From Candidatus Woesearchaeota archaeon (lineage in GTDB: Archaea > Nanobdellota > Nanobdellia > Woesearchaeales > JABGUJ01): 64,000 bases of DNA. Location of the stretch: positions 100,843-164,842 of the forward strand of contig JABGUJ010000002.1 in the NCBI GenBank assembly GCA_018646625.1, given 5' to 3'. The notes under the pieces are model-generated. The model saw only the letters and a program-made list of their open reading frames with translations, searched no databases and had not been told where the DNA came from. Positions 6,421 to 55,507 of this stretch are shown here, piece by piece (within the stretch, counting starts at the first letter, position 1; each line of letters starts with the position of its first letter). The translations under genes were made by a program, and so were the position numbers.

Positions 6421-6888
6421 ATGGGCTTTAATCAAAAAGAATTATTGATTATGTCTCATCTTAGGGAGAATTCTAGAAAGAATTTAACTAAGATAAGTAA
6501 AGAAACCAAAATAGCAGTTTCTACAATCTTTGATAAGATTAAGAAATATGAAGGCGGAATAATAAAGAAACATACCTGCATCTTGGATTTTACAAAGCTA
6601 GGATTTGATGTAAGAGTCAAAATGATCCTTAAGTGTCCTAGACCTAATAGAGATGAAATACAAGAATTTCTTGTAAGACATCCAAGAGTTAACTCAGTAT
6701 ACAAAATAAACAATGGCTACGACTTCTTGATTGAAGGGATCTTTAGACATATGAAAGATCTCAGCGAGTTTACTGAAAAATTGGATGGATACAAAGTGAA
6801 AGATAGACACGAGTATTTTGTACTAGAGGATCTAAAAATCGAGTCGTTCCTTAGCGATCCGTCTTATATTGAGATGGTAGGCATTTAG
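6421..6888 (+). CDS. Lrp/AsnC-family transcriptional regulator
   Basis: N-terminal HTH (LTKISKETKIAVSTIFDKIKK) plus a C-terminal RAM-like domain; size is typical of the family. Confidence 0.7.
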   Translation: MGFNQKELLIMSHLRENSRKNLTKISKETKIAVSTIFDKIKKYEGGIIKKHTCILDFTKLGFDVRVKMILKCPRPNRDEIQEFLVRHPRVNSVYKINNGYDFLIEGIFRHMKDLSEFTEKLDGYKVKDRHEYFVLEDLKIESFLSDPSYIEMVGI

Positions 6889-7056: not shown

Positions 7057-7491
7057 ATGGGAAAAATAGTAATTGAAAAAAAAGACATCGACATCTTAGA
7101 CATATTAAGAATCAATGCAAGATCTAGTTTATCAGATATAAGCAGAGAGACAAATATTCCATTATCTACAGTATTTGATAGAGTTAGACGTGTGGAATCT
7201 AATCTTATTAAGAAATATACTTCTTTTATCGACTTCGGCAATATAGGTGTAAGAAACAAAAGAGGACTAATAATTACTGGAGAAATGCCCGAATTGAAGA
7301 GTCACAGCATAAACAAAATAATGCGATTAGATGAGGGTAGACTGTTTATTGAGCTTTGTCATAATTCCCAGAACTCAGTTAAAGAATTTGATGAAGAGAT
7401 GAAAAAGAGTAAATGTTCAATTCTGCATGATTTCGAATATGAACCTATTGTTGAAGAAAAAATAATACCCAGTACATTGTTTAATGAATAG
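7057..7491 (+). CDS. Lrp/AsnC-family transcriptional regulator (second tandem paralog)
   Basis: HTH LSDISRETNIPLSTVFDRVRR followed by a RAM-like C-terminus. Confidence 0.65.
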   Translation: MGKIVIEKKDIDILDILRINARSSLSDISRETNIPLSTVFDRVRRVESNLIKKYTSFIDFGNIGVRNKRGLIITGEMPELKSHSINKIMRLDEGRLFIELCHNSQNSVKEFDEEMKKSKCSILHDFEYEPIVEEKIIPSTLFNE

Positions 7492-9044: not shown

Positions 9045-11564
9045 CTACGAGAAATAAGGCCTCGAATAATGAGCATATGCACCATAGTTCTCAAACTTGC
9101 CGCGCATATTTAACATATCGATTTCATTATCATTCTCAGGTCTTGGGAAATCTACTATTTTAATAATTAAACCATTCCTGTGTGTGACGAGTGAATTATA
9201 GCTAACATTCCAATATACACTCCTATTTATACCCGTGAAATAAACACCACCAACCTCAGCGTTCGGACCCACATGAGTGAAATTAGCAACATAATCCTGA
9301 ACTACTTCACAATCTGCATAAGCGCTATCACTCCCATTCTCAAAGAACCAGAGTTTAGTATCTTTAACACCATCGCAAATGTCAAGGGCCTCCGAGTCCA
9401 CACTCCCATTAATATGTAAACACCCACACACTTTTACTGCCGCACCATCCTCCATAACAGTATCCACTTTACAATTCTCAGGCACACCTGTACGTAAGGT
9501 TTCCTTTTCACGCTCACAAATATCCATCATTTCATCATCGCTGCCGCAATCACATCTTCTCGTAGCATCAATATAATATCCAGCTTCATCAACTAAACTC
9601 CCTTCAACCTTCCATAAACCTGGAGCAAGAGGTAAACTCAAAATTGGTTGATCATTACGAATAATTAACGAAGTTGCCAAACGATCATCATCAGTATATT
9701 CAGTTACTCGCTGAAACTTAATAGAAATTAATTCATCATCTGCAAGTGCACGTTTTCCAGAAAAGTTCAAAGCAGGAATTATATCAATATCAACAATTTC
9801 AACATTAACAATAGGCGACATCTCAACATATTGAGTAAATGCATCATCAGGATAATCAACATTTACTTTGACTCTGTTTTTCACATATCCTTCCTTTGAA
9901 AAGACCATAAAGGCTTCCCCCCTACACATAGGGAGATTAGTTGTAGTTTCGGCCAAATTAGTAACTAGATCAAGCTCCGTGTTCAAATCATCCCACTTAC
10001 ATGTAACATATCTCCCACAAGTAAATTGAACATCTGCATTAGAGATAGGAGCATTAGTGTATTTATCATACACCACAAAAGTTCTTTCAGGACCAATTCT
10101 TTGCTCTTCATTACAGATAAGAGAGTCTTTTGCTTTATCGGTCATTAATTCAGAATCTAGTTCTTCTAGAAACTCCTCTTCACCGGATAACTCCATTTCA
10201 GTTCGTATCTGCTCTTCAACTAGTTCGGTACCCATTTCAACATCTCCAGGATTCAGAGGAACTCTTCCTTGACCATTCAAATAATCAAACAGATTCAGGT
10301 TTCTCCTTAAGCTAACTTCGTGTGCAAAGTAAAATGAATACGAATCTCGTCCATCTTTGAATGGAATGTCTTCTAATATCACCCTTATAAGAACAGGATA
10401 AGATAGATCATAAAAAAATCTATATTTATAAGTTTCATCACCAGTTATTATATCAAAAAAATCAGGACCTTTAATTGTCTTAGGTACGAGTTTATCGTCA
10501 TCCGCAGGCCAAATATTTGAGTAAACAGGCCAATCCAAATAAATAAATTCCACATTAATGTGATCTAAGATGTCAACATCTTGAAATAAATCAAATAAAA
10601 ATGGTTTTAATAAACCAGGAGAGCCCGGGACATCAATCAACTCAGAGTCTCGTAATCCTTCAACTTGAAACATGTTAACAGACAGCATAAGTACATCTTT
10701 GATCATTTTCTTTGATTTTTCCAGTGACCAAGTAACTTTATCTTCCCCATTAACTGAATCTGCAGAAAACGGAGGTAATTTATCAGAATCTAAACCAGAA
10801 TACAGAACTAAGGCATGCATAGTTGCATCTTCTAGCGATTGTGTTGCAGTAAGAGACTGCGACAATGCAAATGCAACCCCAAATACATCCATGAAATTAA
10901 ATGGCAACTCAGAACTAAATCGATCTATCCGAGTAACAAGCTCACCATCCTTTCCCCATCTTACTTCGAGAGGATAAATGAGATCTAGGAACATGACACT
11001 TTCAGCATAGTCAAATGATATAAATCTTCCAGGCAGCTCAGTAACATTGAAGCCCTGCAATCCAAATGCTTTGTACTGATCTAAGCACTCAGTCATATGA
11101 TTAAGAATATATCCTCGTACTTGGTTATTTACAAGATCAATCTCAGGAATATTCTCATTCGTAATTGTCAATGAACCACTTTCACTAGGTTCGGGGACAT
11201 AATACCAGTAAGGAACGGCATTTCGTTCATCAAATAAAGTAACACCACTACTTTCAACCGGATTGTCTAGATCAAAATAAAATGATCTTCCAGACAATTC
11301 TTCATTTAATGGATCAAGATAACCTCCATGTAAACCTATGTAATCAAATGCCTCATGACTAACTTTCCGTAAACAATCTTCCACAGCCTGCTTCACAGGT
11401 CTAATTTCTAAAGGAATATCCTCCGCAGTTGAATCAGGTTTCAAAGACTCAATCTGAATCTCACGAATATATAACATAAGTCCGACTAATATCAAGATAA
11501 TAAATCCCACCAAGATGTAGATAGATATTTGAGATCTTTGCGATCTATTATCCATTCTTAACAC
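9045..11564 (-). CDS. Large N-terminally anchored extracellular protein (839 aa)
   Basis: N-terminal TM (ISIYILVGFIILILVGLMLYI), a long ectodomain and a Cys-rich C-terminal region. Overlaps the upstream gene by 17 nt, indicating an operon. Confidence 0.5.
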   Translation of the reverse strand: MLRMDNRSQRSQISIYILVGFIILILVGLMLYIREIQIESLKPDSTAEDIPLEIRPVKQAVEDCLRKVSHEAFDYIGLHGGYLDPLNEELSGRSFYFDLDNPVESSGVTLFDERNAVPYWYYVPEPSESGSLTITNENIPEIDLVNNQVRGYILNHMTECLDQYKAFGLQGFNVTELPGRFISFDYAESVMFLDLIYPLEVRWGKDGELVTRIDRFSSELPFNFMDVFGVAFALSQSLTATQSLEDATMHALVLYSGLDSDKLPPFSADSVNGEDKVTWSLEKSKKMIKDVLMLSVNMFQVEGLRDSELIDVPGSPGLLKPFLFDLFQDVDILDHINVEFIYLDWPVYSNIWPADDDKLVPKTIKGPDFFDIITGDETYKYRFFYDLSYPVLIRVILEDIPFKDGRDSYSFYFAHEVSLRRNLNLFDYLNGQGRVPLNPGDVEMGTELVEEQIRTEMELSGEEEFLEELDSELMTDKAKDSLICNEEQRIGPERTFVVYDKYTNAPISNADVQFTCGRYVTCKWDDLNTELDLVTNLAETTTNLPMCRGEAFMVFSKEGYVKNRVKVNVDYPDDAFTQYVEMSPIVNVEIVDIDIIPALNFSGKRALADDELISIKFQRVTEYTDDDRLATSLIIRNDQPILSLPLAPGLWKVEGSLVDEAGYYIDATRRCDCGSDDEMMDICEREKETLRTGVPENCKVDTVMEDGAAVKVCGCLHINGSVDSEALDICDGVKDTKLWFFENGSDSAYADCEVVQDYVANFTHVGPNAEVGGVYFTGINRSVYWNVSYNSLVTHRNGLIIKIVDFPRPENDNEIDMLNMRGKFENYGAYAHYSRPYFS

Positions 11565-12396
11565 CTCTCGATTTAGCCAGGAATAAATAACAAAAGTATC
11601 TCCCCCATGAATGAAATAGCAAGATAACTAAAGTGAATATAAATGCCGCAACATAATTCGAAATATGAGAAATAATAGGCAAAGACAGCAATGATATTAA
11701 CGAAAGTAAAACCACTAAGATTAATGTTAAAACCACAAAAAGAAACATAGTAGTCGGTAGCATTTTCAGAGATAATATAGATAGTTTTCTTAGATTTTTA
11801 AATCGCCCTAATTTGCAGTTATAATATACATTTGATACAAAGATAAAATTAACAAACAAAAGAAGAAGAATTATAACAAACAATGATATATGAAGAACAT
11901 GAACACCTTCATTAGATAATAATATTGCAAATAACACAGAGAAAAATAAGAATATGTAACTTATAATCAAATTTTTTAGTAAGAAACTTAGAAAGAATGA
12001 TAACAATGATACCTTAATCCTTCTAATAGTGCGCCAGATAATTGCAGAGGCGAATGAAAATATAGAGAAAAATAATCCCCAGATTACTAAGAAAGATATT
12101 AAACATAAGCCCATAAAGACGAGTATACTTTTACTAGTATCAGTAGACTCGTTTAACCAACTAGAATAAATTTCTTCAGAATTAGCTAAAGCTTCAGTAC
12201 CATATTGAGAATAGATATTCTCAGATCTCTCCTTAAGATCATACTTATCTGCATAAAACAATACAGACGTGATAAACAAAGAAGACAATAATATAAAGAT
12301 AAGAACTAGTGCAATGTCACACGCTACAAGTTTAAAAAGATTAAATCTAAATGCACGTTTACTCTTACCGACACATTTAACTAACGATCTAATCAT
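11548..12396 (-). CDS. Polytopic membrane protein (about 6-7 TM)
   Basis: Multiple hydrophobic helices. Overlaps both neighbours by 4 nt and 17 nt (translational coupling). Confidence 0.5.
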   Translation of the reverse strand: MIRSLVKCVGKSKRAFRFNLFKLVACDIALVLIFILLSSLFITSVLFYADKYDLKERSENIYSQYGTEALANSEEIYSSWLNESTDTSKSILVFMGLCLISFLVIWGLFFSIFSFASAIIWRTIRRIKVSLLSFFLSFLLKNLIISYIFLFFSVLFAILLSNEGVHVLHISLFVIILLLLFVNFIFVSNVYYNCKLGRFKNLRKLSILSLKMLPTTMFLFVVLTLILVVLLSLISLLSLPIISHISNYVAAFIFTLVILLFHSWGRYFCYLFLAKSRGVKNG

Positions 12397-13052
12397 ATTT
12401 CTTTCTCCACAACTTCAACAGACCACTCATGGTCTTGGTAATTCTTATCTTGATAAGTAACACTAAAGTTCACATATCTTTTATGATCTGTATGATTAAT
12501 ATAAAAAACATCAAATCCAGATGCACCTTCATAATTAGTAATGTAGTTTGTTGCAGACTGATCTTGTATTATATTTATGAGTTGAGGCGTAACACCTGAC
12601 TCGCCAATCAAATACAATTCAAAAGGAATTACAATATCTTCAACAGCACCCTCGCTATCAGGTAATTCAGTAGAATAAGGCGCCTCCACGTACCAACTAG
12701 TTTGATACATATATTGAGACATGTTATCGTCTTGATATATCAAAGTACGGTCAGCCTGTATTGCAACCGTTAATTCAGATAAATAAGATCTATGTGCAGC
12801 CGTTGCTGCACTGCTTGCAGGAATATTGGGTCCACCGGTTAGCAAACAAACAAACTTCTCAGTATCGGTAACATCGTACCAAGGCATAAGTATTGCATCC
12901 ATTGGCTGTCCAAGATAAACCATAGAATCAAAATAACTCGCATCCTCATCAGCTAAAGCCGAAAACGACAATACAAACAAAGCTATAAAAATTATAGAAC
13001 CCAGTCTGTGCATCGCACTAATCATCATACTCAACTCCGTTGCAATTTTCAC
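12393..13052 (-). CDS. Secreted protein (signal peptide)
   Basis: N-terminal signal LGSIIFIALFVLSFSALA. Overlaps the giant upstream gene. Confidence 0.45.
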   Translation of the reverse strand: MKIATELSMMISAMHRLGSIIFIALFVLSFSALADEDASYFDSMVYLGQPMDAILMPWYDVTDTEKFVCLLTGGPNIPASSAATAAHRSYLSELTVAIQADRTLIYQDDNMSQYMYQTSWYVEAPYSTELPDSEGAVEDIVIPFELYLIGESGVTPQLINIIQDQSATNYITNYEGASGFDVFYINHTDHKRYVNFSVTYQDKNYQDHEWSVEVVEKEI

Positions 13053-16000
13053 TCATTGTACCCATAATTTTATCCATATATTCTGAACCTTCCATAGGTG
13101 TAGATAGTTCACCGTAATCATACATAAGCAATGCAGCATATTTCGCATATCCGTCATAAGATGGAACAGTGATCCACTCAGTTAAAGCAGATCCTTTCAT
13201 ATTCTTCAACGCAGGCAATTCCATTATTTTCTGAGTAATCCACTGTAACACTCTAGAAGTTAGATAAGAAGGAGGGAAAAGAAGTTTTAAGGCAGCCGCG
13301 AGTATTGTTTGAATAATTAACCACACAGATGGCAAACCAATCTCAACAATCGCACCATGATAATACAAACACTCCCTTATAGATCTCATTTCTGTACAAA
13401 CATTAGCTGGAAGAGTTCCATATCGTCCAATGTCTTGAAGGCATTTGTATTCTTTACAAAGAATTTGTTTTCGTTTTCTTTCTGCAGCCAACTGACCAGG
13501 GTAACAGAAACAACCTTCCGCCACTTCCCGACTTTTGTACGGATTCATCTCAAGATTATCATCTAGAGATAAGCCTCCTGCAACCATTCCGGCCTGAGCC
13601 CCCGCCATACCTGCAGCTGCCACAGTTCCAGTAGCCGCACCAGCAGCCACACCGGCACCACCGGTCAAAGCAGCAGTTCCTAACATAGCATTGAATCCAG
13701 GTTCAATATTTGTACCTGCATAAGCATCTGATGTTTCAATCGCACCTTGAATTGCAGACGCAATCCCGTTCGAAATAAGACTATCAACAAGAGTATTAGT
13801 ACTAGCAAGTGTATTTACTATTTCATTTGCAGCTTCTTCGCCGACCCAACCGCCGAGATCCATACTATCAGCTACAGATTCAGTCAAATCATAAGTATCA
13901 GCTCCGGCCATTTGTAAACCCGCAGTTAAACTAGCCATTATACCCATTGCTTTAAAGAAACCTTCAGGTTTTGAAGCACCACTACCGTCTCCAATTGAAC
14001 ATAAATGGCAAGTATTTATCAAGCAAGTTGCCCTTGCCAACCAACCAGTAATGTGATACAACTCTTCTTGTTCCGTAGGTAAGTAATTCCAAAGATAGGA
14101 TGAAACTTTTAGTGCTGAAGTAGATACTTCGGTAAATATATCTAAAAGCCCACTCAATGCCGTACCAATAAAAGCACACTGAGATGTTTTAGGACATGCT
14201 TTTATTATTGGACTAAATATTATGAATGCAACAGTTGTTAATATTGTTACAATAGTAGTCATAAGAATTGCATATTGAAGATATTCGCAAGCATATCTTA
14301 TATATTCAGCCCAAATAATTATTTGATCAATCTTCTCATCAACGCCACGTAAATCTGATTTTACTCCATCAACAAGTTCACCAAACGCCTCATCAAAATA
14401 TCCAATAGGTAAATTAGCGAGCGGTGCAGTAAAGTTGACAGTTTCAAGCTCAATCTTTTCATAAAATACTAATCCATCACGAACAACAAAGCCAATGTTA
14501 CAACTTAGTTTTGGTTTTACAGGATTAAAACAACTAGAAGTATCCGTCTCAGAATCCTCACAAGGTGGTAGATCAGAACTATTGACTGCTTCAGCACCCA
14601 TTCCACCAAGCCTGAGCGATAGTATAGGCACATCTGCTTTCCCATTCAGAATCTGTGCTTCAGTTACTGGAAATTCACTATTAAAACAAGAAGTTGTACC
14701 TTTATGTAACTCAACATCCGTTAGAATACCTGAATGCATCAATGAGTGGATTTTTATATCAGTAGCTAAAACAGTTTCATATATTTTACAATTAGGATCC
14801 AAAGATATAGGCATTAACTCAACATAAAGAGGAAATGGCTTAACAGATGCAGCACGCCAATCTACAACACTTGGAGTAACACGGCCCTTATTCAAATATA
14901 CACAATTCGGCACACCAGTATTATTAATACCGCAAATAGTTACTACCTTACGAATTGAATCAAAATTTCCTGCAGCATCATAAGCAGTAAGTTCAATCTC
15001 GGCAGAAGGAACTGGAAATGAAACAATGTTAGACAGATTTACATTGCACTCATATAAGCCATCATAATGCTTATATGGGCGACAAACTCCAACAAATGGT
15101 TCATTAACATCAACAATTCTGTTATGCTCATCAATTGCTCCATTGATCTCGATCTTTGTTACAGGAGAAGTGTCTTCAACAAGAACTCTATAAGTTACAA
15201 CATCATTCGATGTAGGACAATCTCTAAATGAATTAATAGTATAATTGGTTCTTTTAATTACCGGAGGTTCGTTATCAAAAGTGACTCTAAATTGCTGGTT
15301 GCTTATTCTATTCTGCGCATCATCAAAAGAACTATGTAGTCTAATTGTAACCACATCACTTGAAACAATATCAGGGCGATTAACCCAGATTGGTTCCCAA
15401 ATACAACTCCAAGTTGTTGATCCATTTGTTGTTTTACAGCTGTTTGCTTTTGTTTTCTGATGCCCTACACGAATAGAAGACATGTCAAGATAAACATCAC
15501 CATTATTCAATCCAGCACCACTCTCTTCAAGAATTAATTCAAACTTATTTTCTTTACCACCAACAAAGTTTTGAACATATCCGCCTTCAATTACAGGAGA
15601 ATTAGAAAGAAACTTCTTGACAATTGGCTTACTAGAATCCGCTTGAAAATTAACTTCATGAGTTTTGGTTACATAATTACCAGCACCATCACCCACCTTT
15701 ATTTTTGCAATCCTGGTAGAAGACGTTGATACAATCATCGGAAACTGCCAGATACAAGTAGCAGTATTATCACCAGAGAGAGAACAACTTTGCGGTTCTA
15801 AAGATGCAAATCGAGCATGATCACTTGGTGGTAAACCATCTTGAATAAATGAAACAACATCAATGACAGAATCACCTAAATTCACATTAGAAATACTAAG
15901 ATCCGAATAACTAACAGTGAGTTTAGCATTATAAGAATTTCCAGGATTCACAAATAGTTCTTCACCCAACACACCAGCAGTTTCAAAAAGTATATCTTTT

Positions 16001-16719
16001 ATCACAGGTTCTAAGTTATCAAGAGTGACAGTTAATGATGAAGAATCCACATAATTATCTAGCTTGTCAGATACACTAAGAATCGCATCGCCTATAAGTT
16101 CACCAGGAAATGATTTCATATCAAAATATCCAGTAGTAGTACAAGAAGTTTGAGATTTAATTGTAGGGGTTGCAGACACAAATAAATCCCCATAAAATAA
16201 TGATATCTGATTTATTCCCGAACAATATCCATTAACTCTCGAAGTATCTGATACTCTAAAATTCAATCGTTTAGCAGACTCATCCCATGAAAAATCTTCA
16301 ACAAGTGGTGAAACGTCATCAATAGTAATCGAAGCAGAAGCCTGAGCAACTACAGAATAATCCTCATTTTTGTATATTACTTCAAGATTACCTGAAGGAA
16401 TCTTAAATTCTATTTCGCACTTATAACGATCACTTCCAAAAGGATTACAAGAATCGGCAGGATAGCCATTAAAGAGAACTCTGTTTTCATCTAAAGACTG
16501 CTCATTTGTCTTCACTAATGCAGCAACAGAAACTTCATCAGTTGGTTTAGCATAACCATTAACGCCATTCTCGCCAGAAATATGCACAATTTCAACAGCA
16601 TAATCCGCAGGAGGAGAAACAGGTTGAGCAAATGAACGAGCAGAAGCGAACGATAGAGATATCACAAGAAAACACATGAATATAGCTAAGTTTTGCTTGT
16701 ACACCCCTTTTAAGTACAT
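13018..16719 (-). CDS. Giant cell-surface protein (1233 aa): signal peptide, beta-rich ectodomain, C-terminal membrane segments and a Gly/Ala-rich stretch
   Basis: Signal peptide FLVISLSFASARSFAQP. Long Thr/Ser/Asn/Val-rich region typical of Ig-like beta domains. C-terminal hydrophobic helices and the GGAGVAAGAATGTVAAAGMAGAQAGMVAGG tract. Confidence 0.55.
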   Translation of the reverse strand: MYLKGVYKQNLAIFMCFLVISLSFASARSFAQPVSPPADYAVEIVHISGENGVNGYAKPTDEVSVAALVKTNEQSLDENRVLFNGYPADSCNPFGSDRYKCEIEFKIPSGNLEVIYKNEDYSVVAQASASITIDDVSPLVEDFSWDESAKRLNFRVSDTSRVNGYCSGINQISLFYGDLFVSATPTIKSQTSCTTTGYFDMKSFPGELIGDAILSVSDKLDNYVDSSSLTVTLDNLEPVIKDILFETAGVLGEELFVNPGNSYNAKLTVSYSDLSISNVNLGDSVIDVVSFIQDGLPPSDHARFASLEPQSCSLSGDNTATCIWQFPMIVSTSSTRIAKIKVGDGAGNYVTKTHEVNFQADSSKPIVKKFLSNSPVIEGGYVQNFVGGKENKFELILEESGAGLNNGDVYLDMSSIRVGHQKTKANSCKTTNGSTTWSCIWEPIWVNRPDIVSSDVVTIRLHSSFDDAQNRISNQQFRVTFDNEPPVIKRTNYTINSFRDCPTSNDVVTYRVLVEDTSPVTKIEINGAIDEHNRIVDVNEPFVGVCRPYKHYDGLYECNVNLSNIVSFPVPSAEIELTAYDAAGNFDSIRKVVTICGINNTGVPNCVYLNKGRVTPSVVDWRAASVKPFPLYVELMPISLDPNCKIYETVLATDIKIHSLMHSGILTDVELHKGTTSCFNSEFPVTEAQILNGKADVPILSLRLGGMGAEAVNSSDLPPCEDSETDTSSCFNPVKPKLSCNIGFVVRDGLVFYEKIELETVNFTAPLANLPIGYFDEAFGELVDGVKSDLRGVDEKIDQIIIWAEYIRYACEYLQYAILMTTIVTILTTVAFIIFSPIIKACPKTSQCAFIGTALSGLLDIFTEVSTSALKVSSYLWNYLPTEQEELYHITGWLARATCLINTCHLCSIGDGSGASKPEGFFKAMGIMASLTAGLQMAGADTYDLTESVADSMDLGGWVGEEAANEIVNTLASTNTLVDSLISNGIASAIQGAIETSDAYAGTNIEPGFNAMLGTAALTGGAGVAAGAATGTVAAAGMAGAQAGMVAGGLSLDDNLEMNPYKSREVAEGCFCYPGQLAAERKRKQILCKEYKCLQDIGRYGTLPANVCTEMRSIRECLYYHGAIVEIGLPSVWLIIQTILAAALKLLFPPSYLTSRVLQWITQKIMELPALKNMKGSALTEWITVPSYDGYAKYAALLMYDYGELSTPMEGSEYMDKIMGTMSENCNGVEYDD

Positions 16720-28429: not shown

Positions 28430-28520
28430 AGGCCGGTAGCTCAGCCTGGAGTTTAATTACGGGCAATAGAGCACTCGACTTTTAATCGAGTGGTCGCGGG
28501 TTCGAATCCCGTCCGGCCTA
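28430..28520 (+). tRNA. tRNA-Lys(TTT) with a ~17 nt insertion (non-canonical intron) in the D-loop
   Basis: Acceptor aggccgg/ccggcct, D stem gctc/gagc, D-loop agcctgg[agtttaattacgggcaa]ta, anticodon stem ctcga/tcgag with loop ctTTTaa, T arm gcggg-ttcgaat-cccgt. Confidence 0.6.
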
Positions 28521-36600: not shown

Positions 36601-37038
36601 ATGGGAAAAAAAGCATCAGGAATAAACGCAGGAACTAAGCTAATTAAAAGGAGAATTAAATCTCTTTGGCAAAGTACTAAGTACAAGAAAAGAGTTCTAG
36701 GTTTGAGAAAGAAGGCAGATCCTTTAGGAGGCGCATCTCAGGCTAAAGGAATTGTTCTAGAAAAAGTTCAGTTAGAAGCTAAACAGCCTAACTCCGCAAT
36801 GAGAAAATGTGTTAGAGTGCAACTTGTTAAGAATGGAAAACAAATCACTGCATTTTTACCAGGAGATGGTGCAACAAAGCTTGTAGATGAGCATGATGAA
36901 GTAATGATCGAATGTATCGGTGGTAAAATGGGAAGATCTAAAGGAGATATTCCTGGAGTCCGATGGGTTGTTATGAAAGTTAATGATCAATGTATTCACG
37001 CACTAAGAAGTGGAAAAGCAGAGAAGGCAAGAAAATAA
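36601..37038 (+). CDS. rps12: Ribosomal protein S12 (uS12)
   Basis: [13 protein letters not shown] and [16 protein letters not shown] motifs. Confidence 0.9.
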
Positions 37039-37039
37039 A

Positions 37040-37639
37040 ATGGCAGAAATACTAGCATTCAATAGATGGACAACAAAAGACATTATCGTAACTGATATGG
37101 GTCTTAAAAACTATATAACTTTAGAACCAAGAGTTGTTCCGAAGACTGGTGCAAGGTATGCAGGTAACAGATTCCACAAATCAAGAACATTTATTGTTGA
37201 AAGATTGATCAATAAGTTGATGAATCCAGGTCATAAATCTAAGAAACACTTCAAGACCAGCGGTCACTGTACCGGTAAAGGTCAAACAGCTTACAAGCTT
37301 GTTGAAGATGCTTTAGAAATAGTAGAAAAGAAAACAAACGAGAATCCAGTTGCTGTATTTGTTAAAGCAGTAGAAAATGCAGCACCAAGAGAAGAAATAA
37401 TCACAATTGAATATGGTGGAGCAAGATACCCAAAAGCGGTTGAATGTGCGCCTCAAAGAAGAATCGATATTGCTTTAAGGTTACTTTCTCAAGGAACGTA
37501 CCATAAAAGCTTTAATTCTGCTAAAAATGCGTCAGGTATCCTAGCACAGGGCATAATTGATGCATATAATGCAAGTTCTAACAGTTTGGCTATCTCCAAG
37601 AAGCACGAAATGGAGAGACAGGCAGATAGTAGTAGATAA
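37040..37639 (+). CDS. rps7: Ribosomal protein S7 (uS7)
   Basis: uS7 fold. The start is placed at MAEILAF, directly after the S12 stop; the track's 37010 start overlaps S12 in another frame. Confidence 0.85.
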   Translation: MAEILAFNRWTTKDIIVTDMGLKNYITLEPRVVPKTGARYAGNRFHKSRTFIVERLINKLMNPGHKSKKHFKTSGHCTGKGQTAYKLVEDALEIVEKKTNENPVAVFVKAVENAAPREEIITIEYGGARYPKAVECAPQRRIDIALRLLSQGTYHKSFNSAKNASGILAQGIIDAYNASSNSLAISKKHEMERQADSSR

Positions 37640-37716
37640 AACTACTAGGGAACATTTAAATAGACGCTCTGCTTATAGCTTCTAAGAGGTGATTTGGGGA
37701 AGGTAGAAATTATAAG

Positions 37717-37842
37717 ATGGTACCAAAATTTTTAAAATTAGTAGATGATCCTTGTTTCGGTGAAGAGCACGAAGAAAGAGATCAATGTTCGTTCTGTTGG
37801 ATAAAAGAAGCATGTTTAGTGAGATTTAGAAACCGGAAGTGA
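37717..37842 (+). CDS. Candidate 41 aa Cys-containing small ORF
   Basis: My translation is MVPKFLKLVDDPCFGEEHEERDQCSFCWIKEACLVRFRNRK* (C-x10-C-x2-C-x5-C). It is below the track's size cutoff. Confidence 0.2.
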   Translation: MVPKFLKLVDDPCFGEEHEERDQCSFCWIKEACLVRFRNRK

Positions 37843-37854
37843 ATGTCACCGGCT

Positions 37855-37885
37855 AGTAGTAATATATACAAACCTTTATATACTA
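37855..37885 (+). promoter_or_regulatory. Conserved ~31 nt promoter/operator element (copy 1), upstream of the LysM-M15 gene
   Basis: agtagtaatatatacaaacctttatatacta includes a TATA-like tttatata. It is 28/31 identical to copy 2 at 39935-39965. Confidence 0.55.
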
Positions 37886-37922
37886 TCTCCACACTACATT
37901 ATTACGTATTCTAAGAGTACAT

Positions 37923-39062
37923 TTGGAGGAAAGTAGAGTGTATCAACCAAGAAGGTCATTGTTCTATGCTTTAGCGGCAGCTTACTTATTATTAGCACCT
38001 GCAACGGCTTCTGCTCAACGATATCATAGAGTGAAAGGAGGCCAGAGCGTTAGCGCAATCGCAGAGAAAACAGGCGTACCCTTAGATGAAATTCTATCAT
38101 GCAATCCAAGCATAAGAGAAGATCCTCAGCATAGAATCTATGTGGGTCAGAAACTAAGATTGTATGAGACTTACAGAGTAAAGAAAGGAGATACTCTTTC
38201 AGAGATTGCAGAAAGCTATTGGACAACTGTTGAAGAGCTTATGTCTTATAATGGAATTAGAGATCAGAACAAGATTCATGTAAGACAAAAACTAAGAATA
38301 CCTTGTAGAGAACAACATGTTGTTGAAAGTGGCGAAAGTCTAGAAGAAATTGCAAAAAGAGAAGGACTTAGTGTTGAAGATCTACTAAAAAGAAATCCCG
38401 AACTAAAAAGAAATCCCGGTCTTATTTATCCAGGTCAAAGAATTTATGTTGATGAAAGAGAACCTGAACCGACAGCTGATGAGATGCGAAAAACTCGAGC
38501 TAAAGCAGAGACTAGAAAGAAGGGAAGAACAGTAAGATTTCAATCTGGATTAGAGTTAAGAGTAAGTTCGGATAAGCGATTAATTGGAAGAGGAAAACAC
38601 TTCTGGGATTCGGTCGGTAGCGGATTACCTTTACTTAAAGTTGAAGCAAGAGATTTGTATAGAGAAGTATCACCCCATTTCAATCTAGAAGAGTTTGCAA
38701 GAGTTGAACCTAATGAAGAAAGATTTGCAGATTCACGTTACACCTTTAGACATGGCGGGCACATGTATCATAGTTATGTTAGAATAGATAAGTTACTACT
38801 TAGAAAACTAGAGAGAGTTAGAGGAAGATATGGTGAACCTATAAAGATCGACTGCGCCTACAGACCATATAAACATAATATGAAAGTTACGTCAGCCAGG
38901 AAGAGTAGACATATTTCAGGACAAGCAGTTGATATAGTTGCACACAAACGTGGGAAATTGCGAAGACTACTTAGAAGAGAGTTTCGTTCTGGCGGAATAG
39001 GTGAAGGTCCAACTACAATTCATGTAGATGTACGTCCACAAAGAAAGCGTTGGGGATATTAG
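37923..39062 (+). CDS. Secreted peptidoglycan hydrolase: signal peptide + 3 LysM domains + C-terminal M15 (YcbK/MepK-like, DUF882) zinc peptidase domain
   Basis: Signal peptide LFYALAAAYLLLAPATASAQ. LysM repeats: YHRVKGGQSVSAIAEKTGVPLDEILSCNP, YRVKKGDTLSEIAESYWTTVEELMSYNGI and HVVESGESLEEIAKREGLSVEDLLKRNPEL. C-terminal IDCAYRPYKHNMKVTSARKSRHISGQAVDI...GGIGEGPTTIHVDV matches the SGYRxxxxN...SxHxxGxAxD...HVD zinc-binding pattern of peptidase M15A/DUF882. Confidence 0.7.
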   Translation: MEESRVYQPRRSLFYALAAAYLLLAPATASAQRYHRVKGGQSVSAIAEKTGVPLDEILSCNPSIREDPQHRIYVGQKLRLYETYRVKKGDTLSEIAESYWTTVEELMSYNGIRDQNKIHVRQKLRIPCREQHVVESGESLEEIAKREGLSVEDLLKRNPELKRNPGLIYPGQRIYVDEREPEPTADEMRKTRAKAETRKKGRTVRFQSGLELRVSSDKRLIGRGKHFWDSVGSGLPLLKVEARDLYREVSPHFNLEEFARVEPNEERFADSRYTFRHGGHMYHSYVRIDKLLLRKLERVRGRYGEPIKIDCAYRPYKHNMKVTSARKSRHISGQAVDIVAHKRGKLRRLLRREFRSGGIGEGPTTIHVDVRPQRKRWGY

Positions 39063-39097
39063 TTAAACTTAAATAGTTTCTAAAAGTAATTGATAAT

Positions 39098-39631
39098 ATG
39101 AAACATACTTTTTGGTATATTGACCATTTGATGGAAGTGTTAAGTGAACGAGTCTTAGATTTTACTGATGGAAAAGCTTGGGGACCAGGTGAAGATAGAT
39201 CAAGAGGAACACTACGATCTGATTCTGAAAAAAGAAAAGCAAGAAAACTGCTTGACAAGATAAAAGAGTATGATAAAAAGCTTAGAAAACTAATTGATAA
39301 TCATAGAAACGAAGAACACTTGAGAACTCTCCACAACTGTCATGTTGATAGCATACCCAACTGGGCAGACAGAGTTAAGGCAATGTTTAAGAAATTTGAT
39401 GCGCTTCTAAAAGTACTAGAAGAAGACATTCCAAAACTAGAAGCCGCAATTGAATCGGAGCACCACATGTGGGGTGACAGACATCAGGATATGGTTATGG
39501 GTTTTCTTATGGCGGGGTTTCATGATGCTGAGCAAGACATGGAAGAGTTTCGTAAGGCATCCATATTCGAAAGAAAGCACTTGCAAGAAATTCTTGGCGA
39601 TTTAAAAGATCTTGAAGAAGTTCTAGAGTAG
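39098..39631 (+). CDS. Hypothetical cytoplasmic alpha-helical protein (177 aa)
   Basis: Charged helical protein with consistent coding bias and no recognisable motif. Confidence 0.35.
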   Translation: MKHTFWYIDHLMEVLSERVLDFTDGKAWGPGEDRSRGTLRSDSEKRKARKLLDKIKEYDKKLRKLIDNHRNEEHLRTLHNCHVDSIPNWADRVKAMFKKFDALLKVLEEDIPKLEAAIESEHHMWGDRHQDMVMGFLMAGFHDAEQDMEEFRKASIFERKHLQEILGDLKDLEEVLE

Positions 39632-39680
39632 ATGATCACCACACAAATAATTATAAACCTTACCAACTAATATCAATCAG

Positions 39681-39932
39681 ATGTATAAAAAAATAAAAGA
39701 ATATTTTGAGAAAAAATATACTCTCAGATATTTTGAAATTAAGAGTATGATTATCATCACATTGCTTTCTACGCTGTTTTTAGTAAACGTTTGGCCAAGA
39801 TTCAGAAATGATGTGCTTGAATTCCCGTGGTATGGATATGTTATACTGATAGCTATCCTTGCGATCATATGGATAATATGGAGAAATCATGCATCAAATA
39901 AGCAAGTCTCCAAGGAACAACATCGTCACTAA
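39681..39932 (+). CDS. Small two-TM membrane protein
   Basis: Hydrophobic segments MIIITLLSTLFLVNVW and YVILIAILAIIWIIW. Confidence 0.35.
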   Translation: MYKKIKEYFEKKYTLRYFEIKSMIIITLLSTLFLVNVWPRFRNDVLEFPWYGYVILIAILAIIWIIWRNHASNKQVSKEQHRH

Positions 39933-39934
39933 CA

Positions 39935-39965
39935 AGTAGTAATATATACATACATTTATATACTA
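39935..39965 (+). promoter_or_regulatory. Conserved ~31 nt promoter/operator element (copy 2), upstream of the SPOR/beta-lactamase-fold gene
   Basis: agtagtaatatatacatacatttatatacta, ~54 nt upstream of the ATG at 40019. Confidence 0.55.
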
Positions 39966-40018
39966 GTTCTGCCTTATACAATATCTAATTCTAGGCATAA
40001 TGCCTCAGAAATACAAAA

Positions 40019-41626
40019 ATGAGCGATAGAGACCTTGATGGAATAGTAGGAGCAGATCTTAGTAGAAGAGATTTTCTCAAATTTGGAAGAAATCTAACAG
40101 GTGGTGCAGTAGCTGCAGATGTAGCTATGAAAACAGGTATTGCTACAGCTGTTTTAAAATGGCTTTTTTCACCTAGAGAAGCTCATGCTCAAACAGGTTC
40201 TGGAAGATATGATGTATCTTACATTTGGCATCCTAAATTAGATGCAGCTCTAGATTATATGGATCAAGTAGAAAAAGTTCTTGGAAAAACATTAGGTAAA
40301 GAGTTAAGAGTTGTAAGAGGTAGGAGTGGAAACTTCGGTATAGTTTATGATAGAGATGCTTCTACAAGAGAAAAAGCAGAGAAGACTGCAAGAAGTCATA
40401 CTAACACGCTAAAAAAGGCAGACCTAGATGATGCGGGAGTTGTTAAAGATGAAGGTTATGGTTTAGTTTACAACATAAGTTACGGAAGAGGTCCAAATTT
40501 AGGTGCTTTGAAAAAAGCTTTTGATATTGTATACAAACAACTAGGTAGCGGGCTAGGTAAAAGATTAGTTATTGAAGAAAAAGATAATGGAGATTATGCA
40601 TTAGTTTACAAAAGATATGGTGATAAAGAATTAGGTAGAGTTTCTGCTGCAAGACATCACGATGTTCTGAAAAGAACGGATCTTAGAAAAGTTCTAGGTA
40701 TGCGTAGAGGTGCAGAGCTTGCTTCAGTTATTGAAGAAAGAAATGATAATGCAATATTTGGTGAAGGTAGTCATTTAGATGATGTCGTAGAAACACCAAA
40801 ACCTGAAAAGATTGTCAAACCCAGAAAACCTAAACCAGAAATAACCACAGATTTAGAGGCAGCAATCGAAAGACATGTTGGTCAACTAAGAAGAAGAGGA
40901 CTTATCTCTGGCGACGAGAGAACAGCATGGTCTGTGTATGATTTCGATACAGGTGATAAGGTAGTTAGCATAAATGAAGATGTGCCTATGCAAGCTGCAA
41001 GTATGATTAAACCATTTATAGCATTAGCATATTTCCACGAAGTAAAGCAGGGAAGAAAAGTTTATGGTCCCAAATCAAAAAGAAATATGCAAAGAATGAT
41101 TCAAAAAAGTAGCAACAGCGCTACTAACTGGTTCATTAAAACACTAGGAGGACCATCAAAGGTTCAAGAAATATTAAGAAGGAATTATAGCGAAATCTGC
41201 AAACAAGTTAGAATTAGAGAATATATTCCATCCGGCGGAAGAACATACAGAAACTTAGCTTCAGCTCACGATTATAGTAGATTATTATATTCTTTATGGA
41301 AAGGTCAGTTACCAAGTTCTAGAGAACTAAGAAGAGTTATGGCTTTACCAGGAAGAGATAGAATTTATAACGGAGTTCCAGAAATACCGAACGGAACTTT
41401 AGTTTACAACAAAACTGGAACTACTGCAAGATGTGTTGGTGACTTTGGTATTTTGTATGCTAAAGACAAAAGAGGTAAAAGACATGCATACACAATGGTT
41501 GGAATTGTAGATAAGCCAAGAAGAACAAGTCATTATGGTAGTTGGGCATCAAGAAGAGCTAGCGCAATAAGAAGCGTCTCTGGAGAAGTCTATAAACATA
41601 TGAAAAGGCGCCACAATTTAGTGTAG
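40019..41626 (+). CDS. Tat-secreted protein: 2 SPOR-like repeats + serine beta-lactamase/DD-peptidase (class A-like) domain
   Basis: Twin-arginine motif SRRDFLKFG. Two ~70 aa repeats (…LRVVRGRSGNFGIVYDRDASTREKAEKTARSH…; …KRLVIEEKDNGDYALVYKRYGDKELGRVSAARHH…) resemble SPOR domains. The C-terminal domain has SxxK (ASMIKP), SxN (SSNSATN) and KTG (NKTGTT) active-site motifs in the correct order and spacing. Confidence 0.6.
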   Translation: MSDRDLDGIVGADLSRRDFLKFGRNLTGGAVAADVAMKTGIATAVLKWLFSPREAHAQTGSGRYDVSYIWHPKLDAALDYMDQVEKVLGKTLGKELRVVRGRSGNFGIVYDRDASTREKAEKTARSHTNTLKKADLDDAGVVKDEGYGLVYNISYGRGPNLGALKKAFDIVYKQLGSGLGKRLVIEEKDNGDYALVYKRYGDKELGRVSAARHHDVLKRTDLRKVLGMRRGAELASVIEERNDNAIFGEGSHLDDVVETPKPEKIVKPRKPKPEITTDLEAAIERHVGQLRRRGLISGDERTAWSVYDFDTGDKVVSINEDVPMQAASMIKPFIALAYFHEVKQGRKVYGPKSKRNMQRMIQKSSNSATNWFIKTLGGPSKVQEILRRNYSEICKQVRIREYIPSGGRTYRNLASAHDYSRLLYSLWKGQLPSSRELRRVMALPGRDRIYNGVPEIPNGTLVYNKTGTTARCVGDFGILYAKDKRGKRHAYTMVGIVDKPRRTSHYGSWASRRASAIRSVSGEVYKHMKRRHNLV

Positions 41627-41715
41627 GTCAATATACTATTCTCTATACTACATAAGTAACCTATTTATAGTCTCATACCATATATAGTGTTAAGTAGGTG
41701 GGGGAGGCGCAACAT

Positions 41716-42075
41716 ATGCCAAAGAAAGTTTTATTGGTGGATGATGAAGAGAATATTCTTAGATTGTTAGAGATGAGTGTGCAGGGTTCTTACAAACCTA
41801 TTCTAGCACGCAATGGTATAGAAGCTGTGAAGAGAGCAAAAGAAGATAATCCAGATACAATTGTATTGGATTTAATGATGCCAGGCATGGATGGTTTTGA
41901 AGTTATTAAAGAACTAAAGAAACTGAAAGAAACAAAAGACATACCTATTATTGTCTTGAGTGCCTTGCATAGCAGAGAAGTTAGAGAAAGAGTGATGAAT
42001 GAAGGAGTTTGCGATTACATGATCAAACCATTTGCTCCAGACGACTTGAGATTTAAGTTACAATTATTCAGTTAG
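41716..42075 (+). CDS. Stand-alone response-regulator receiver domain (CheY-like)
   Basis: VLLVDDEENILRLL...DLMMPGMDGFEVIKELK...PIIVLSA. It has the phospho-acceptor Asp context and no output domain. Confidence 0.7.
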   Translation: MPKKVLLVDDEENILRLLEMSVQGSYKPILARNGIEAVKRAKEDNPDTIVLDLMMPGMDGFEVIKELKKLKETKDIPIIVLSALHSREVRERVMNEGVCDYMIKPFAPDDLRFKLQLFS

Positions 42076-42154
42076 AGTGTTTCTTTGTTTTATTCTTTGA
42101 TTTAATTAGATTATCTAAGAAAGTTTTAAAAAGCCAGGTTATAGATTTTAGAGT

Positions 42155-42787
42155 ATGAAGCAATTATTTTTACATGCAAAAGTTGATGTTGATTTAATCA
42201 AAATTGTAGAAAAAGTAGTATCCAGATTAAAAGGAAAAGTAGCAGTTTATACCACAATACAACATCTGGGCATGATTAAACCAGTTCTAGAATATCTTAA
42301 AAAAGAGAAAGTTAATGTAGTAAGTAGCGGACAGATTCTGGGTTGTATTGTTCCTAAAGATAAAGTTGATACATTCTTATATTTAGGACAAGGTAAATTC
42401 CACCCTATAGCAATATTGCTCAAACATGATACTAAAGTTATATGTGCAGACCCAATAAGTTGCAAAGTAACAGAAATAAGCAAATCAGATGTTGAAAGAG
42501 TTGTAAAGAAACAAAAAGGCGCAATGTTAAAATTTCTAACATCAAATAAAATCGGTGTTCTGGTTAGCATGAAGAAAGGTCAAGAACACTATAACGAAGC
42601 TAAAAAACTTGAGAAAAAATATCCCGATAAAACATTTTATTATTTTGTGATGGATACTCTAGACTTCAATGAGATCGAGAATTTCCCTAAAGTCGAATGT
42701 TATGTTAATAGTATGTGTCCAAGAATAGGTTTTGACGATACAATCAGAGTAGGTAAAAGTATAATCAACTTGGAGGAAGTACTATGA
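42155..42787 (+). CDS. dph2: Dph2-like protein lacking the first of Dph2's three domains
   Basis: Aligns to P. horikoshii Dph2 residues ~110-320. QILGCIVPKD aligns to QVLGCNYS, FLYLGQGKFHPIAILL to ILFIGSGIFHPLGLAV, and NKIGVLVSMKKGQ...ECYVNSMCPRIGFDD to KKFGVIVSIKKGQ...VVVACPRVPLDD. There is an in-frame stop 3 codons upstream, so no domain-1 equivalent. Confidence 0.55.
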   Translation: MKQLFLHAKVDVDLIKIVEKVVSRLKGKVAVYTTIQHLGMIKPVLEYLKKEKVNVVSSGQILGCIVPKDKVDTFLYLGQGKFHPIAILLKHDTKVICADPISCKVTEISKSDVERVVKKQKGAMLKFLTSNKIGVLVSMKKGQEHYNEAKKLEKKYPDKTFYYFVMDTLDFNEIENFPKVECYVNSMCPRIGFDDTIRVGKSIINLEEVL

Positions 42788-53885: not shown

Positions 53886-54034
53886 ATTTATTTCATTCTA
53901 TGTTTAGTTCTTGCGATTTTTATTGGATAAGACTTATTAAAAATTAATTCTTGTTGTCTTTTATGAAATCTAAGCAATCTCTAGTTATTGGAAAACACAA
54001 ATATTTATATAATATAGCGAGTTATATACCTGCT

Positions 54035-54256
54035 ATGGCTACTACGACTATTCAAATTAGCAAGAATTTACTCGAAGAGTTAAAGTCTCGTAAAATGTAT
54101 GATAAAGAAAGTTATGAGGATATAATACGAGATTTACTGGAGGATTCTATGGAACTATCTAAGGAGACTCTCAATAATATAAAGAAATCCGAAGCAGATA
54201 TCAAAGCTGGAAAGATTAAGACTTTAGCAGAAGTTGAGGCAAGACTGAAAAGATGA
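54035..54256 (+). CDS. relB: Type II antitoxin (RelB/RHH-like)
   Basis: Small acidic protein directly upstream of RelE-like toxin, overlapping it by 4 nt. The start is at the internal Met MATTTIQISKNLLEELK. Confidence 0.5.
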   Translation: MATTTIQISKNLLEELKSRKMYDKESYEDIIRDLLEDSMELSKETLNNIKKSEADIKAGKIKTLAEVEARLKR

Positions 54257-54513
54257 GCTATAAAGTGATCTTTTCAGATCTGGCAGATAAACAGCTCAAT
54301 AAGCTTTCTTCAGATGTTCAGAGAAGAATAATTTCCACCTTGAAAAGATGTCGAATCAGGCCCCATACACACGTGAAGAAATTAGTTGGCTCAGAATATT
54401 ATAGATTGAGAGTTGGAGATTATAGGGTGATTATGAATATAGTTGATAATAGACTGGTTATTCATGTAATAGAAATGGGTCATAGGAAGAACATTTACAA
54501 AAAAGCAGCGTAG
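54253..54513 (+). CDS. relE: RelE/ParE-family type II toxin
   Basis: YRLRVGDYRVIMNIVDNRLVIHVIEMGHRKNIY matches the RelE/ParE C-terminal core. Confidence 0.75.
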   Translation: MSYKVIFSDLADKQLNKLSSDVQRRIISTLKRCRIRPHTHVKKLVGSEYYRLRVGDYRVIMNIVDNRLVIHVIEMGHRKNIYKKAA

Positions 54514-54562
54514 ATTCTGTTTAAGATATATTTAAATAATACTTCTAAGACAATTGTGTTAT

Positions 54563-54655
54563 GGGCCTATAGCATAGCCTGGATAGTGCGTCCGGCTTCG
54601 GAAGACTTATGTCTGTAGATACCGGTTGACGGGGGTTCGAATCCTCCTAGGCTCA
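54563..54655 (+). tRNA. tRNA-Arg(TCG) with a 19 nt intron at the canonical 37/38 position
   Basis: Acceptor gggccta/taggctc, D stem gcat/gtgc, anticodon stem tccgg/ccggt with loop ctTCGg|[aagacttatgtctgtagat]|a, variable tgac, T arm ggggg-ttcgaat-cctcc. An Arg anticodon is the most parsimonious reading; Pro(CGG) is the alternative. Confidence 0.55.
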
Positions 54656-55507
54656 TCCAATTCTTTTAATTCTGTTGATAGAAGTTCTTATTCTAAAGAT
54701 GATGAAAATAAACAGAGTTTTGATACATACTTTTACTTCTCAGAGACCGAAGAATTCCTTGAATGGATTAAGTTGAAGGTAGGTTCTGAACATTTTATCC
54801 ACATGAAGTGTTATTTTATGAAACATCTTGCAGGTAAGAAGTTCAAAGGACCATTAGAGTTGTATAAGTATATTTCAGAACAGAAAGGCATCAATAATCT
54901 AGTCAAAGCAGCAAGAGGTTATTTGAACTATTGTGAAGCCACAGATAAACTTTCAGCTGAGACTATCGACAAATATAGAAAGATACTGAAACTTAAGAGA
55001 ACTAAGATAGACTATCATGTTCCAGATGATAAAGAGATCGTTAAGAATTATAATCTGATTAAAGGTAACAAAAACCTTGAGTTGGTTTATTTGGTCCTAG
55101 CTTGCTCAGGTCTTAGGTATATAGAAGTTCTTCGCTTTCTGAAGAACTATGATAAGACCAAGTTTGTTGATCACGGAACCTTTGTCTCGTATAATATATC
55201 CGAGATTCGTGGTTCGAAAAGTGTTAACAATCTCTACCTACCCCGGTTTGTTTATGATAAACTAAACCATGTAGACAATACTTATAATTCTCTTAGACAA
55301 AGATTCAAAGAGAAAGGATGTACATTTACTTTGAAATACTTACGTAAATGGAATTACAATTTCTTAATCTACAACGGAGTTCCTGAGTCTGTAGCAGATT
55401 TTATTCAAGGAAGATCAAGTAATTCAGTTAGTGCTAATCATTATTTAGCTAAGAGTCAGCAGGCTAATCATTGGTATGGGATGATTACTCAAAAATTAAT
55501 ATTATAG
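54626..55507 (+). mobile_element. int: Tyrosine recombinase/integrase abutting the tRNA-Arg 3' end (true start uncertain, probably 54660-54803)
   Basis: C-terminal catalytic region LACSGLRYIEVLRF (Arg) ... LRKWNYNFL ... GRSSNSVSANHYLA (R/H...Y nucleophile region). The reading frame runs into the tRNA 3' end, as in pNOB8-type tRNA-targeting archaeal integrases. Confidence 0.6.

Follow-up and report, generated by a model that had tools for sequence, protein, structure and literature searches.

The genes and the repeated element

The DNA analysed here, which we call the window, comprises 64,000 nt of contig JABGUJ010000002.1 from a Candidatus Woesearchaeota archaeon and is identical to part of an 843-kb contig (JABGRW010000006.1) of the Woesearchaeota metagenome-assembled genome (MAG) GCA_018648045.1. 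It is archaeal, with rpoH, rpoB (split), rpoA', rpoA'', L30e, NusA, S12 and S7 lying directly upstream of the region of interest. Two genes follow, here called gene 1 and gene 2, and each is preceded by a copy of a 31-nt element on the + strand: AGTAGTAATATATACAAACCTTTATATACTA at 37855-37885 and AGTAGTAATATATACATACATTTATATACTA at 39935-39965. The copies agree at 29/31 positions, the mismatches being confined to element positions 17 and 20, so the near-identity described in a first-pass annotation of the window holds. From the end of the element it is 52 nt to the GTG start codon of gene 1 (37938) and 53 nt to the ATG of gene 2 (40019), within the ~40-55 nt first given.

Gene 1 is named by NCBI as a LysM protein of Candidatus Woesearchaeota, with the same GTG start, which is preceded by the Shine-Dalgarno (SD) sequence GGAGG. 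Its translation carries a Sec-type signal that ends at ASA, before Q, and the SxHxxGxAxD motif in the form SRHISGQAVD together with a C-terminal HVD. The genes for 177-aa and 83-aa proteins that follow it are probably co-transcribed with it. We found no gene 1 orthologues in the protein database beyond the same species, which leaves no orthologous promoter for comparison.

The gene 2 protein combines a twin-arginine signal (SRRDFLK) with a C-terminal Beta-lactamase2 domain in which the SMIK, SSN and KTG motifs can be read. Its closest solved relatives are class-A beta-lactamase-like, with LRA-5 and Tll2115 as distant relatives in PDB. Full-length homologues at 43-52% identity occur in Woesearchaeota and in bacteria. 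Two of the homologue loci (L013 and L014) are clearly bacterial, with sigma-54 activators and Por secretion tails, and their sources name Desulfobacterota; in L014 an M15 peptidase and a YkuD L,D-transpeptidase lie near the gene 2 homologue. The occurrence of such homologues in bacteria indicates horizontal transfer of a wall-remodelling enzyme into Woesearchaeota.

The Pfam assignments, three LysM domains with Peptidase_M15_3 in one protein and a Beta-lactamase2 hydrolase domain in the other, support the earlier suggestion that the two genes are functionally related. Both appear to encode exported enzymes of bacterial-type cell-wall chemistry, and we consider the description fair. Archaea own horizontally acquired secreted peptidoglycan hydrolases, with hints in Woesearchaeota (PMC12352652), and genes 1 and 2 fit this published class of archaeal hydrolases derived from bacteria. 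That study concerns the enzymes; it describes no shared promoter element or regulon, and the word 'promoter' occurs 0 times in its text.

Table 1. Parts of the two promoters and the genes that they precede, in window coordinates.
Feature	Position	Strand	Remark
Upstream box copy 1, AGTAGTAATATATAC (AGTAGT + A/T-rich run)	37855..37869	+	~-51 to -37 from predicted start
Spacer copy 1, AAACC, in BRE position	37870..37874	+	varies; C to A at position 20 in L011
TATA box TTTATATA (37875-37882) + CTA, copy 1	37875..37885	+	matches leaderless-gene TATA
Predicted gene 1 leader, ~32 nt; SD GGAGG at 37926-37930	37905..37937	+	start ~37905/37906, from TATA-to-ATG rule
Gene 1, Sec signal, LysM x3 + Peptidase_M15_3 zinc peptidase	37938..39062	+	Pfam; motifs in translation
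Small genes, 177 aa (no family) and 83 aa (membrane)	39098..39932	+	strain-variable cassette
Upstream box copy 2, AGTAGTAATATATAC	39935..39949	+	starts 2 nt past stop codon of 83-aa ORF
Spacer copy 2, ATACA, in BRE position	39950..39954	+	GAACA in L005/L011
TATA box TTTATATA (39955-39962) + CTA, copy 2	39955..39965	+	same 8-mer as copy 1
Predicted gene 2 leader, ~32-34 nt, with hairpin GGCA-TAA-TGCC (39994-40004)	39985..40018	+	predicted start ~39985-7
Gene 2, 535-aa class-A beta-lactamase-related serine hydrolase	40019..41626	+	Pfam PF13354 (Beta-lactamase2)
BRE, TFB-recognition element (TFB, transcription factor B); ORF, open reading frame; L005 and L011, contigs of a diverged strain.

Rarity and anatomy of the element

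We searched the window for further copies on both strands, allowing up to 3 mismatches (<=3) and using 100 dinucleotide shuffles as a control. The two known sites were the sole matches, and none of the shuffles (0/100) held any match; that no third copy exists on either strand of the 64-kb window at this threshold agrees with what had been noticed at first. The 16-nt 5' part alone is not distinctive when 3 mismatches are allowed (1.6 expected), so the significance comes from the long, exact match. Chance was modelled with a third-order Markov chain trained on ~220 kb of DPANN sequence in which known instances were masked. Under this model 0.024 occurrences of the loose form AGTAGT-N14-TTTATA are expected per 64 kb, counting both strands, and 2 were observed; for the strict pattern the expectation is 0.005-0.009 per Gb of DPANN-like composition. 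A repeat finder extends the in-register similarity of the two promoters to 69 nt at 72% identity. This extension, which is weak, adds GTCAC 10 nt upstream and ATTCTA 22 nt downstream of the element, and the promoters are only ~54% identical outside it.

The element can be divided into a 15-nt box, AGTAGTAATATATAC, a spacer of 5 nt that varies and takes the position of the BRE, and a TATA box, TTTATATA, followed by CTA. In both copies the box starts 2-12 nt past the upstream stop codon. Most genes of the window look leaderless, with a TTTAWATA 8-mer that starts 30-31 nt before the ATG, and TTTATATA is the same as these 8-mers or one base off. This spacing argues that the 3' half of the element, initially called TATA-like, is a genuine TATA box. 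Upstream of the leaderless 8-mers lies an A-rich stretch with the approximate consensus (A/G)GAAA(R)N, the local BRE. In the element, the 6 nt ahead of the TATA box read CAAACC and CATACA in the window, and CGAACA, CATAAG, CATAGA and GAAAGC in the relatives described below; the segment is A-rich like a BRE, one of its As is invariant in 9/9 aligned promoters, and CAAACC of copy 1 is near the local consensus. The box lies upstream of the BRE position, and the conserved 5' part does reach beyond BRE/TATA, as the first-pass annotation had it.

Archaeal transcription starts ~25-30 nt downstream of the TATA box. From the TATA-to-ATG distance of the leaderless genes, starts at ~37905/6 and 39985-7 are predicted, which would place the box at ~-51 to -37, and the leaders of ~32 nt that both genes would then have are unusual for this genome. 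Within the small hairpin of the predicted gene 2 leader, the sole change in L005 falls in the loop (TAA to TAT).

Selective conservation between strains

Two metagenomic contigs of a diverged strain, L011 and L005, together span both promoters and were compared with the window. At 4-fold degenerate sites the divergence between the strains is 9-13% for housekeeping genes and 31% for gene 1. The core of the element (15 + 11 nt in each of the two copies) is unchanged at all positions (0/52), compared with 3/10 changed positions in the spacer and 9/105 in the leaders, the gene 1 leader region contributing 2/52 against L011. The core is thus conserved beyond the neutral rate (Fisher's exact test, p=0.003 for core vs spacer and p=0.019 for core vs spacer plus leader). 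All substitutions within the element are confined to the spacer, and the spacer positions that vary between strains coincide with those that differ between the two window copies.

Conservation has a sharp edge on the 5' side, the flanks being scrambled or unrelated up to the A of AGTAGT. At copy 1 in L011, the 12 nt 5' of AGTAGT are scrambled while the box is intact, and the C to A change at position 20 is the sole change in the element. At copy 2 in L005 and L011 the box is again intact, the spacer GAACA holds both changes, and the sequence to the left is wholly different. That sequence is a variable cassette (39063-39934) that stops exactly at the A of AGTAGT. The two small genes that it holds in the window, on the + strand, are replaced in L011 and L005 (6272-7342 of L011) by 147-aa and 159-aa ORFs on the - strand. 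None of the four cassette ORFs (177, 83, 147 and 159 aa) matched a Pfam family.

A ~700-nt block, 41435-42135, shows zero differences between the window and L005, flanked by 100-nt bins with 1-18 differences. The block runs from the 3' end of gene 2 through the intergenic region and takes in a complete receiver-only response-regulator gene; its identity could reflect recent recombination or very strong constraint. Its intergenic region holds two direct TATACTA repeats (41632 and 41644), reminiscent of the TATACTA in which the element ends on its 3' side.

Recurrence in other DPANN lineages

We scanned species-representative genomes with the pattern GTAGTAATATATAC-N5-TTTATA; neither the source MAG GCA_018648045.1 nor its species representative was among the matches. 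Three matches were found, one archaeal (L009) and two bacterial (L008 and L010). We rejected the bacterial ones as chance matches in A/T-rich genomes, the L010 match lying inside a coding region. The archaeal match is in a groundwater Woesearchaeote, RIFCSPHIGHO2_02_FULL_29_10, and has the same 15-mer box followed by N5-TTTATA. The box starts 6 nt past the upstream stop; from the start of the TATA box to the ATG of a gene for a 301-aa trypsin-like protease it is 29 nt, a leaderless-like spacing. On another contig (L004) this genome, assembly GCA_018302545.1, carries a 52% homologue of gene 2.

A scan of metagenomes returned two stretches, the strain variant L011 and a 1.3-kb contig, L012, in which the box and TTTATAAA precede the gene for a 300-aa protein of unknown family. 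A structure model of this protein has low confidence (predicted local distance difference test, pLDDT, 61) and gave weak proteasome-fold matches only. An 89% orthologue is encoded on L138, a 246-kb archaeal contig with genes for diphthamide synthase, RNA polymerase subunit L and TFS, and there the promoter reads AGTAGTAATAAATAG-ATAGA-TTTATAAA. A further variant precedes the 48%-identical orthologue of gene 2 in L006, whose promoter, AGTAGTTAATAATAG-AAAGC-TTTATAAA, keeps the same register. Because L006 was fetched for its orthology to gene 2 and not for the motif, it is independent evidence for the box. In all, the box or a variant of it precedes genes of three further DPANN lineages.

Nine aligned promoters agree without exception in AGTAGT and TTTATA, at four positions within the A/T run and at one A in the BRE segment. 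Variants of the box consist of A/T swaps plus C/G at box position 15, C becoming G at the box end in L138, L006 and the viral contig L150 described below. The CTA that trails the TATA box is kept within the source species only and is absent from L009 and L012. What the promoters share outside BRE/TATA thus occupies a fixed position: the 15-mer stands 5 nt before the TATA box in both window copies, L009 and L012, with variants in L138 and L006. The distance from box to TATA is constant and the leader ranges from ~0 nt (L009) to ~32 nt (window), which points to a role of the box in promoter DNA at initiation and not in RNA.

The hexamer also occurs in another arrangement in the Rifle Woesearchaeote contig L004 (13880-13930, - strand), where AGTAGT overlaps the stop of a gene of the trypsin family and TAA-TTTTAAAT comes next, 30 nt ahead of the start codon (ATG) of a leaderless 93-aa ORF. 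Here AGTAGT is BRE-like and the promoter is single.

Matches in viral contigs

In viral contigs the 15-mer alone gave >120 matches, which we discarded as chance; none had a TATA box rightly placed in a relevant context. A degenerate pattern matched 18 stretches in ~5 families; set against the 8-11 stretches of three control hexamers we take this as background, the family described next apart. One viral family from human gut (L150:13224-13254 and 13 related IMG/VR contigs) carries AGTAGTAATAAATAG-AAACC-TTTATATAGTA; this sequence agrees with window copy 1 at 28/31 positions and shares its 15-mer with L138. The site is intergenic and promoter-like, following a T-run and lying ~50 nt before a tiny membrane-peptide ORF. 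The contigs encode a pseudomurein-binding-repeat protein and are presumably viruses of Methanobrevibacter. Part of the match is explained by the archaeal BRE/TATA consensus. The site may be fortuitous, or it may hint at a wider distribution of the module.

A candidate regulator site upstream of BRE/TATA

We propose, with a probability of roughly 0.6, that the box is a regulator-binding site directly upstream of BRE/TATA. Archaeal upstream promoter elements are a known kind, and this sequence would be a fresh example. The promoter would be composite, made of an ordinary TATA box, a freely varying 5-6-nt A-rich BRE segment and the 15-bp box, in which the AGTAGT hexamer and its 14-nt distance to TATA would be the invariant features. 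A sequence-specific transcription regulator, answering to some biological trigger, would bind the box and help recruit TFB and the TATA-binding protein (TBP), so that the operon of the M15 gene and its two small genes would be expressed in step with that of the serine hydrolase. Given the location of the box immediately upstream of BRE/TATA, activation seems more likely than a block to TFB/TBP. In the first-pass annotation the conserved 5' part had been said to look like a dedicated transcription-factor site. The constraint on the core relative to the spacer and the recurrence of the box 5 nt from TATA speak for such a site, but 'dedicated' to two genes is too narrow, as the box precedes unrelated hydrolase genes elsewhere.

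Several archaeal activators, among them EarA, the ara-box factor, TFB-RF1 and Ptr2, have their sites just upstream of the BRE; archaeal repressors usually bind on or downstream of BRE/TATA (PMC5512572, PMC4158304 for the repressors). Like the EarA boxes of the Methanococcus fla promoter, the Sulfolobus ara-box, the TFB-RF1 site of Pyrococcus pf1089 and the Ptr2 upstream activating sequence of M. jannaschii, our box is a short sequence that abuts the BRE from upstream at a fixed distance from TATA and is common to several promoters; the mechanism expected for sites of this type is recruitment of TFB or TBP (PMC5512572). Unlike them, it has an unrelated sequence, its host is an uncultivated DPANN archaeon, its BRE is not obviously weak, and activation is a prediction from its position.

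Two regulator families offer themselves as leads only, since the box has the symmetry of neither. TrmB-family regulators activate from upstream of BRE/TATA and repress from downstream, and their operators take the forms TACT-N3-AGTA, TACT-N7-8-GAGTA or two repeats of ATAATACT (PMC4158304). The box shares the AGTA/TACT cores but has overlapping AGTAGTA in one orientation, and no inverted partner is conserved at a spacing of N3 or N7-8; a TACTA does lie 20 nt downstream, but its conservation stops at the species. TrmB-family genes are present in two DPANN loci (L004:18226-18978 and L138:13458-14216), and no TrmB homologue was found in the 64-kb window. A box-like sequence upstream of the L004 TrmB gene was dismissed because its spacing is wrong and it falls within chance expectation.

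Sites of Lrp/AsnC (feast/famine regulatory protein, FFRP) regulators, the family to which Ptr2 belongs, are 13-15 bp imperfect palindromes with an A/T-rich centre. The box is likewise 15 bp with an A/T-rich interior, and the window holds two Lrp/AsnC-type genes. It differs in having no dyad: only the outer GTA...TAC can pair, and C/G at the last base breaks this sole pairing. The two genes (6421-6888 and 7057-7491, + strand) are adjacent, one with a ligand-binding domain and the other with an HTH_24/AsnC helix-turn-helix (HTH), and are the only recognisable DNA-binding regulators in the window.

A number of observations weigh against a regulator-binding site. Dimeric regulators typically have dyad or direct-repeat sites, and the box has no dyad and no clean direct-repeat symmetry. 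With copy 1 near the local consensus, a weak BRE in need of help does not seem evident. The genes behind the box are only loosely related in function: two code for wall hydrolases, another for a protease, and the last for what may be a proteasome-fold protein (from the low-confidence model). The metagenome scan missed L005, which bears the pattern, so the collection is incomplete, and L009 and L012 were found through an exact-box search and are uninformative on which bases are tolerated. Finally, three archaeal orthologues of gene 2 (L016, L143 and L144) are without a clear box, two more (L004 and L146) have a degenerate box at best, and a 51% orthologue of the L012 gene has none. If the box is a regulator site, such orthologues would make the regulon evolutionarily fluid.

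Other explanations of the box

One alternative is that the box is a repressor site, which we regard as unlikely. A factor bound to AGTAGT...TATAC, perhaps reaching the TATACTA past the TATA box, would occlude TFB/TBP, much as TrmB represses from a site on BRE/TATA (PMC4158304). Conservation within the source species does cross TATA into CTA, and a loose inverted repeat, TAGTAATATA ... TATATACTA, can be drawn. The trailing TACTA, however, is absent from L009, L012, L138 and L006, and the whole box stands upstream of the BRE position, from which those archaeal regulators that have been characterised usually activate (PMC5512572, PMC4158304).

The 15-mer could instead be a second, specialised core promoter, which we call the main rival to a regulator site even if it strikes us as rather improbable. 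AGTAGT(A) would then be an alternative BRE and the 8-nt A/T run TATA-like, both read by TBP with a paralogous TFB, so that initiation complexes would form in tandem or as alternatives to each other. The lengths are right for this (6-7 nt + 8 nt = 15 nt), and the variants AATATATA, AATAAATA and TAATAATA have only A/T swaps in the run with AGTAGT invariant, which is how TATA boxes vary. The single promoter in L004 is compatible with this arrangement, but it is the only such example found in 222 kb. Moreover, AGTAGT is unlike the window BRE consensus (A/G)GAAA(R), no TFB paralogue was seen in the available sequence, and the first TATA and second BRE would overlap, making simultaneous occupancy impossible.

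We give still less credence to the broader idea, suggested by the viral sites, that AGTAGT-N14-TATA is a promoter module widespread in archaea that marks hydrolase or 'attack' genes and is also used by methanogen viruses; it would be a regulator site shared across DPANN or beyond, or else an alternative BRE for a specialised TFB.

It is also conceivable, if very unlikely, that the box has no dedicated function, the two copies being left by local promoter duplication or gene conversion and the other occurrences being chance in A/T-rich promoters. The 69-nt in-register similarity does suggest common descent of the two promoters, and in viral contigs the 15-mer alone is frequent and the degenerate form is at background. 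Yet the cores stay intact while spacer, leader and flanks change between strains, and little similarity is left between the promoters outside the element. The strict pattern, at an expectation of <=0.01 per Gb, is nevertheless found in promoter position and correct orientation in other DPANN, and a variant stands at an orthologue that was fetched independently of the motif (L006).

Next to no weight can be given to a mobile-element end, a dispersed repeat or a transcribed RNA element (terminator, leader or riboswitch): the box does begin just past the upstream stop and the variable cassette does end exactly at copy 2, but the repeat is short (~31 nt), lacks flanking inverted or direct repeats, has constant orientation and TATA spacing, and is present as two copies in 64 kb, both sense and upstream of a gene, quite unlike a miniature inverted-repeat transposable element, or the longer dispersed repeat or insertion-sequence terminus that the first-pass annotation had considered; the TATA rule puts it upstream of the transcript, it lacks both a G+C stem and a T-run, its DNA folds no better than shuffles (z = +0.4 to +0.9; -1.5 in L009), and Rfam gave no match at E<=1 over 37000-42500.

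Other features of the window

Between the S7 gene and box copy 1 lies an unannotated 41-aa ORF, MVPKFLKLVDDPCFGEEHEERDQCSFCWIKEACLVRFRNRK (37717-37842, + strand), with a C-x11-C-x2-C-x5-C pattern and the SD sequence GAGGTG. Its protein is 100% identical in L011, where the ORF has two synonymous changes and the stop is TAG in place of TGA; it is probably a real small gene missed by the NCBI gene calls.

Further away, a tRNA-Glu (54562-54659) comes after an antitoxin-like ORF and a gene for a ParE toxin (53951-54513) and overlaps an integrase gene of archaeal phage type (54626-55507) at that gene's 5' end. The start of an integrated element probably lies here, around 53951-55507. The predictions for this tRNA-Glu (98 nt) and for a tRNA-Pro (28430-28520, 91 nt) are long enough for introns. 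Four consecutive ORFs of 839, 282, 219 and 1233 aa (9045-16719, - strand) have no Pfam matches at E<=0.001; they form a large lineage-specific block that adjoins the isoleucyl-tRNA synthetase gene.

Implications

To our knowledge almost nothing is known about gene regulation in DPANN archaea, which cannot be grown alone, and we know of no regulation described in this lineage. A literature search found no paper on this motif or on DPANN promoter elements. The box sequence could serve as bait for its regulator and as a means of listing the regulon across MAGs; should it fail such tests, it would merely be another candidate binding site. If our reading is true, the box links two exported peptidoglycan hydrolases of bacterial derivation and would offer, at the level of sequence, a way into what may be a 'host-interaction' or antibacterial regulon; the same box marks protease-type genes in other Woesearchaeota.

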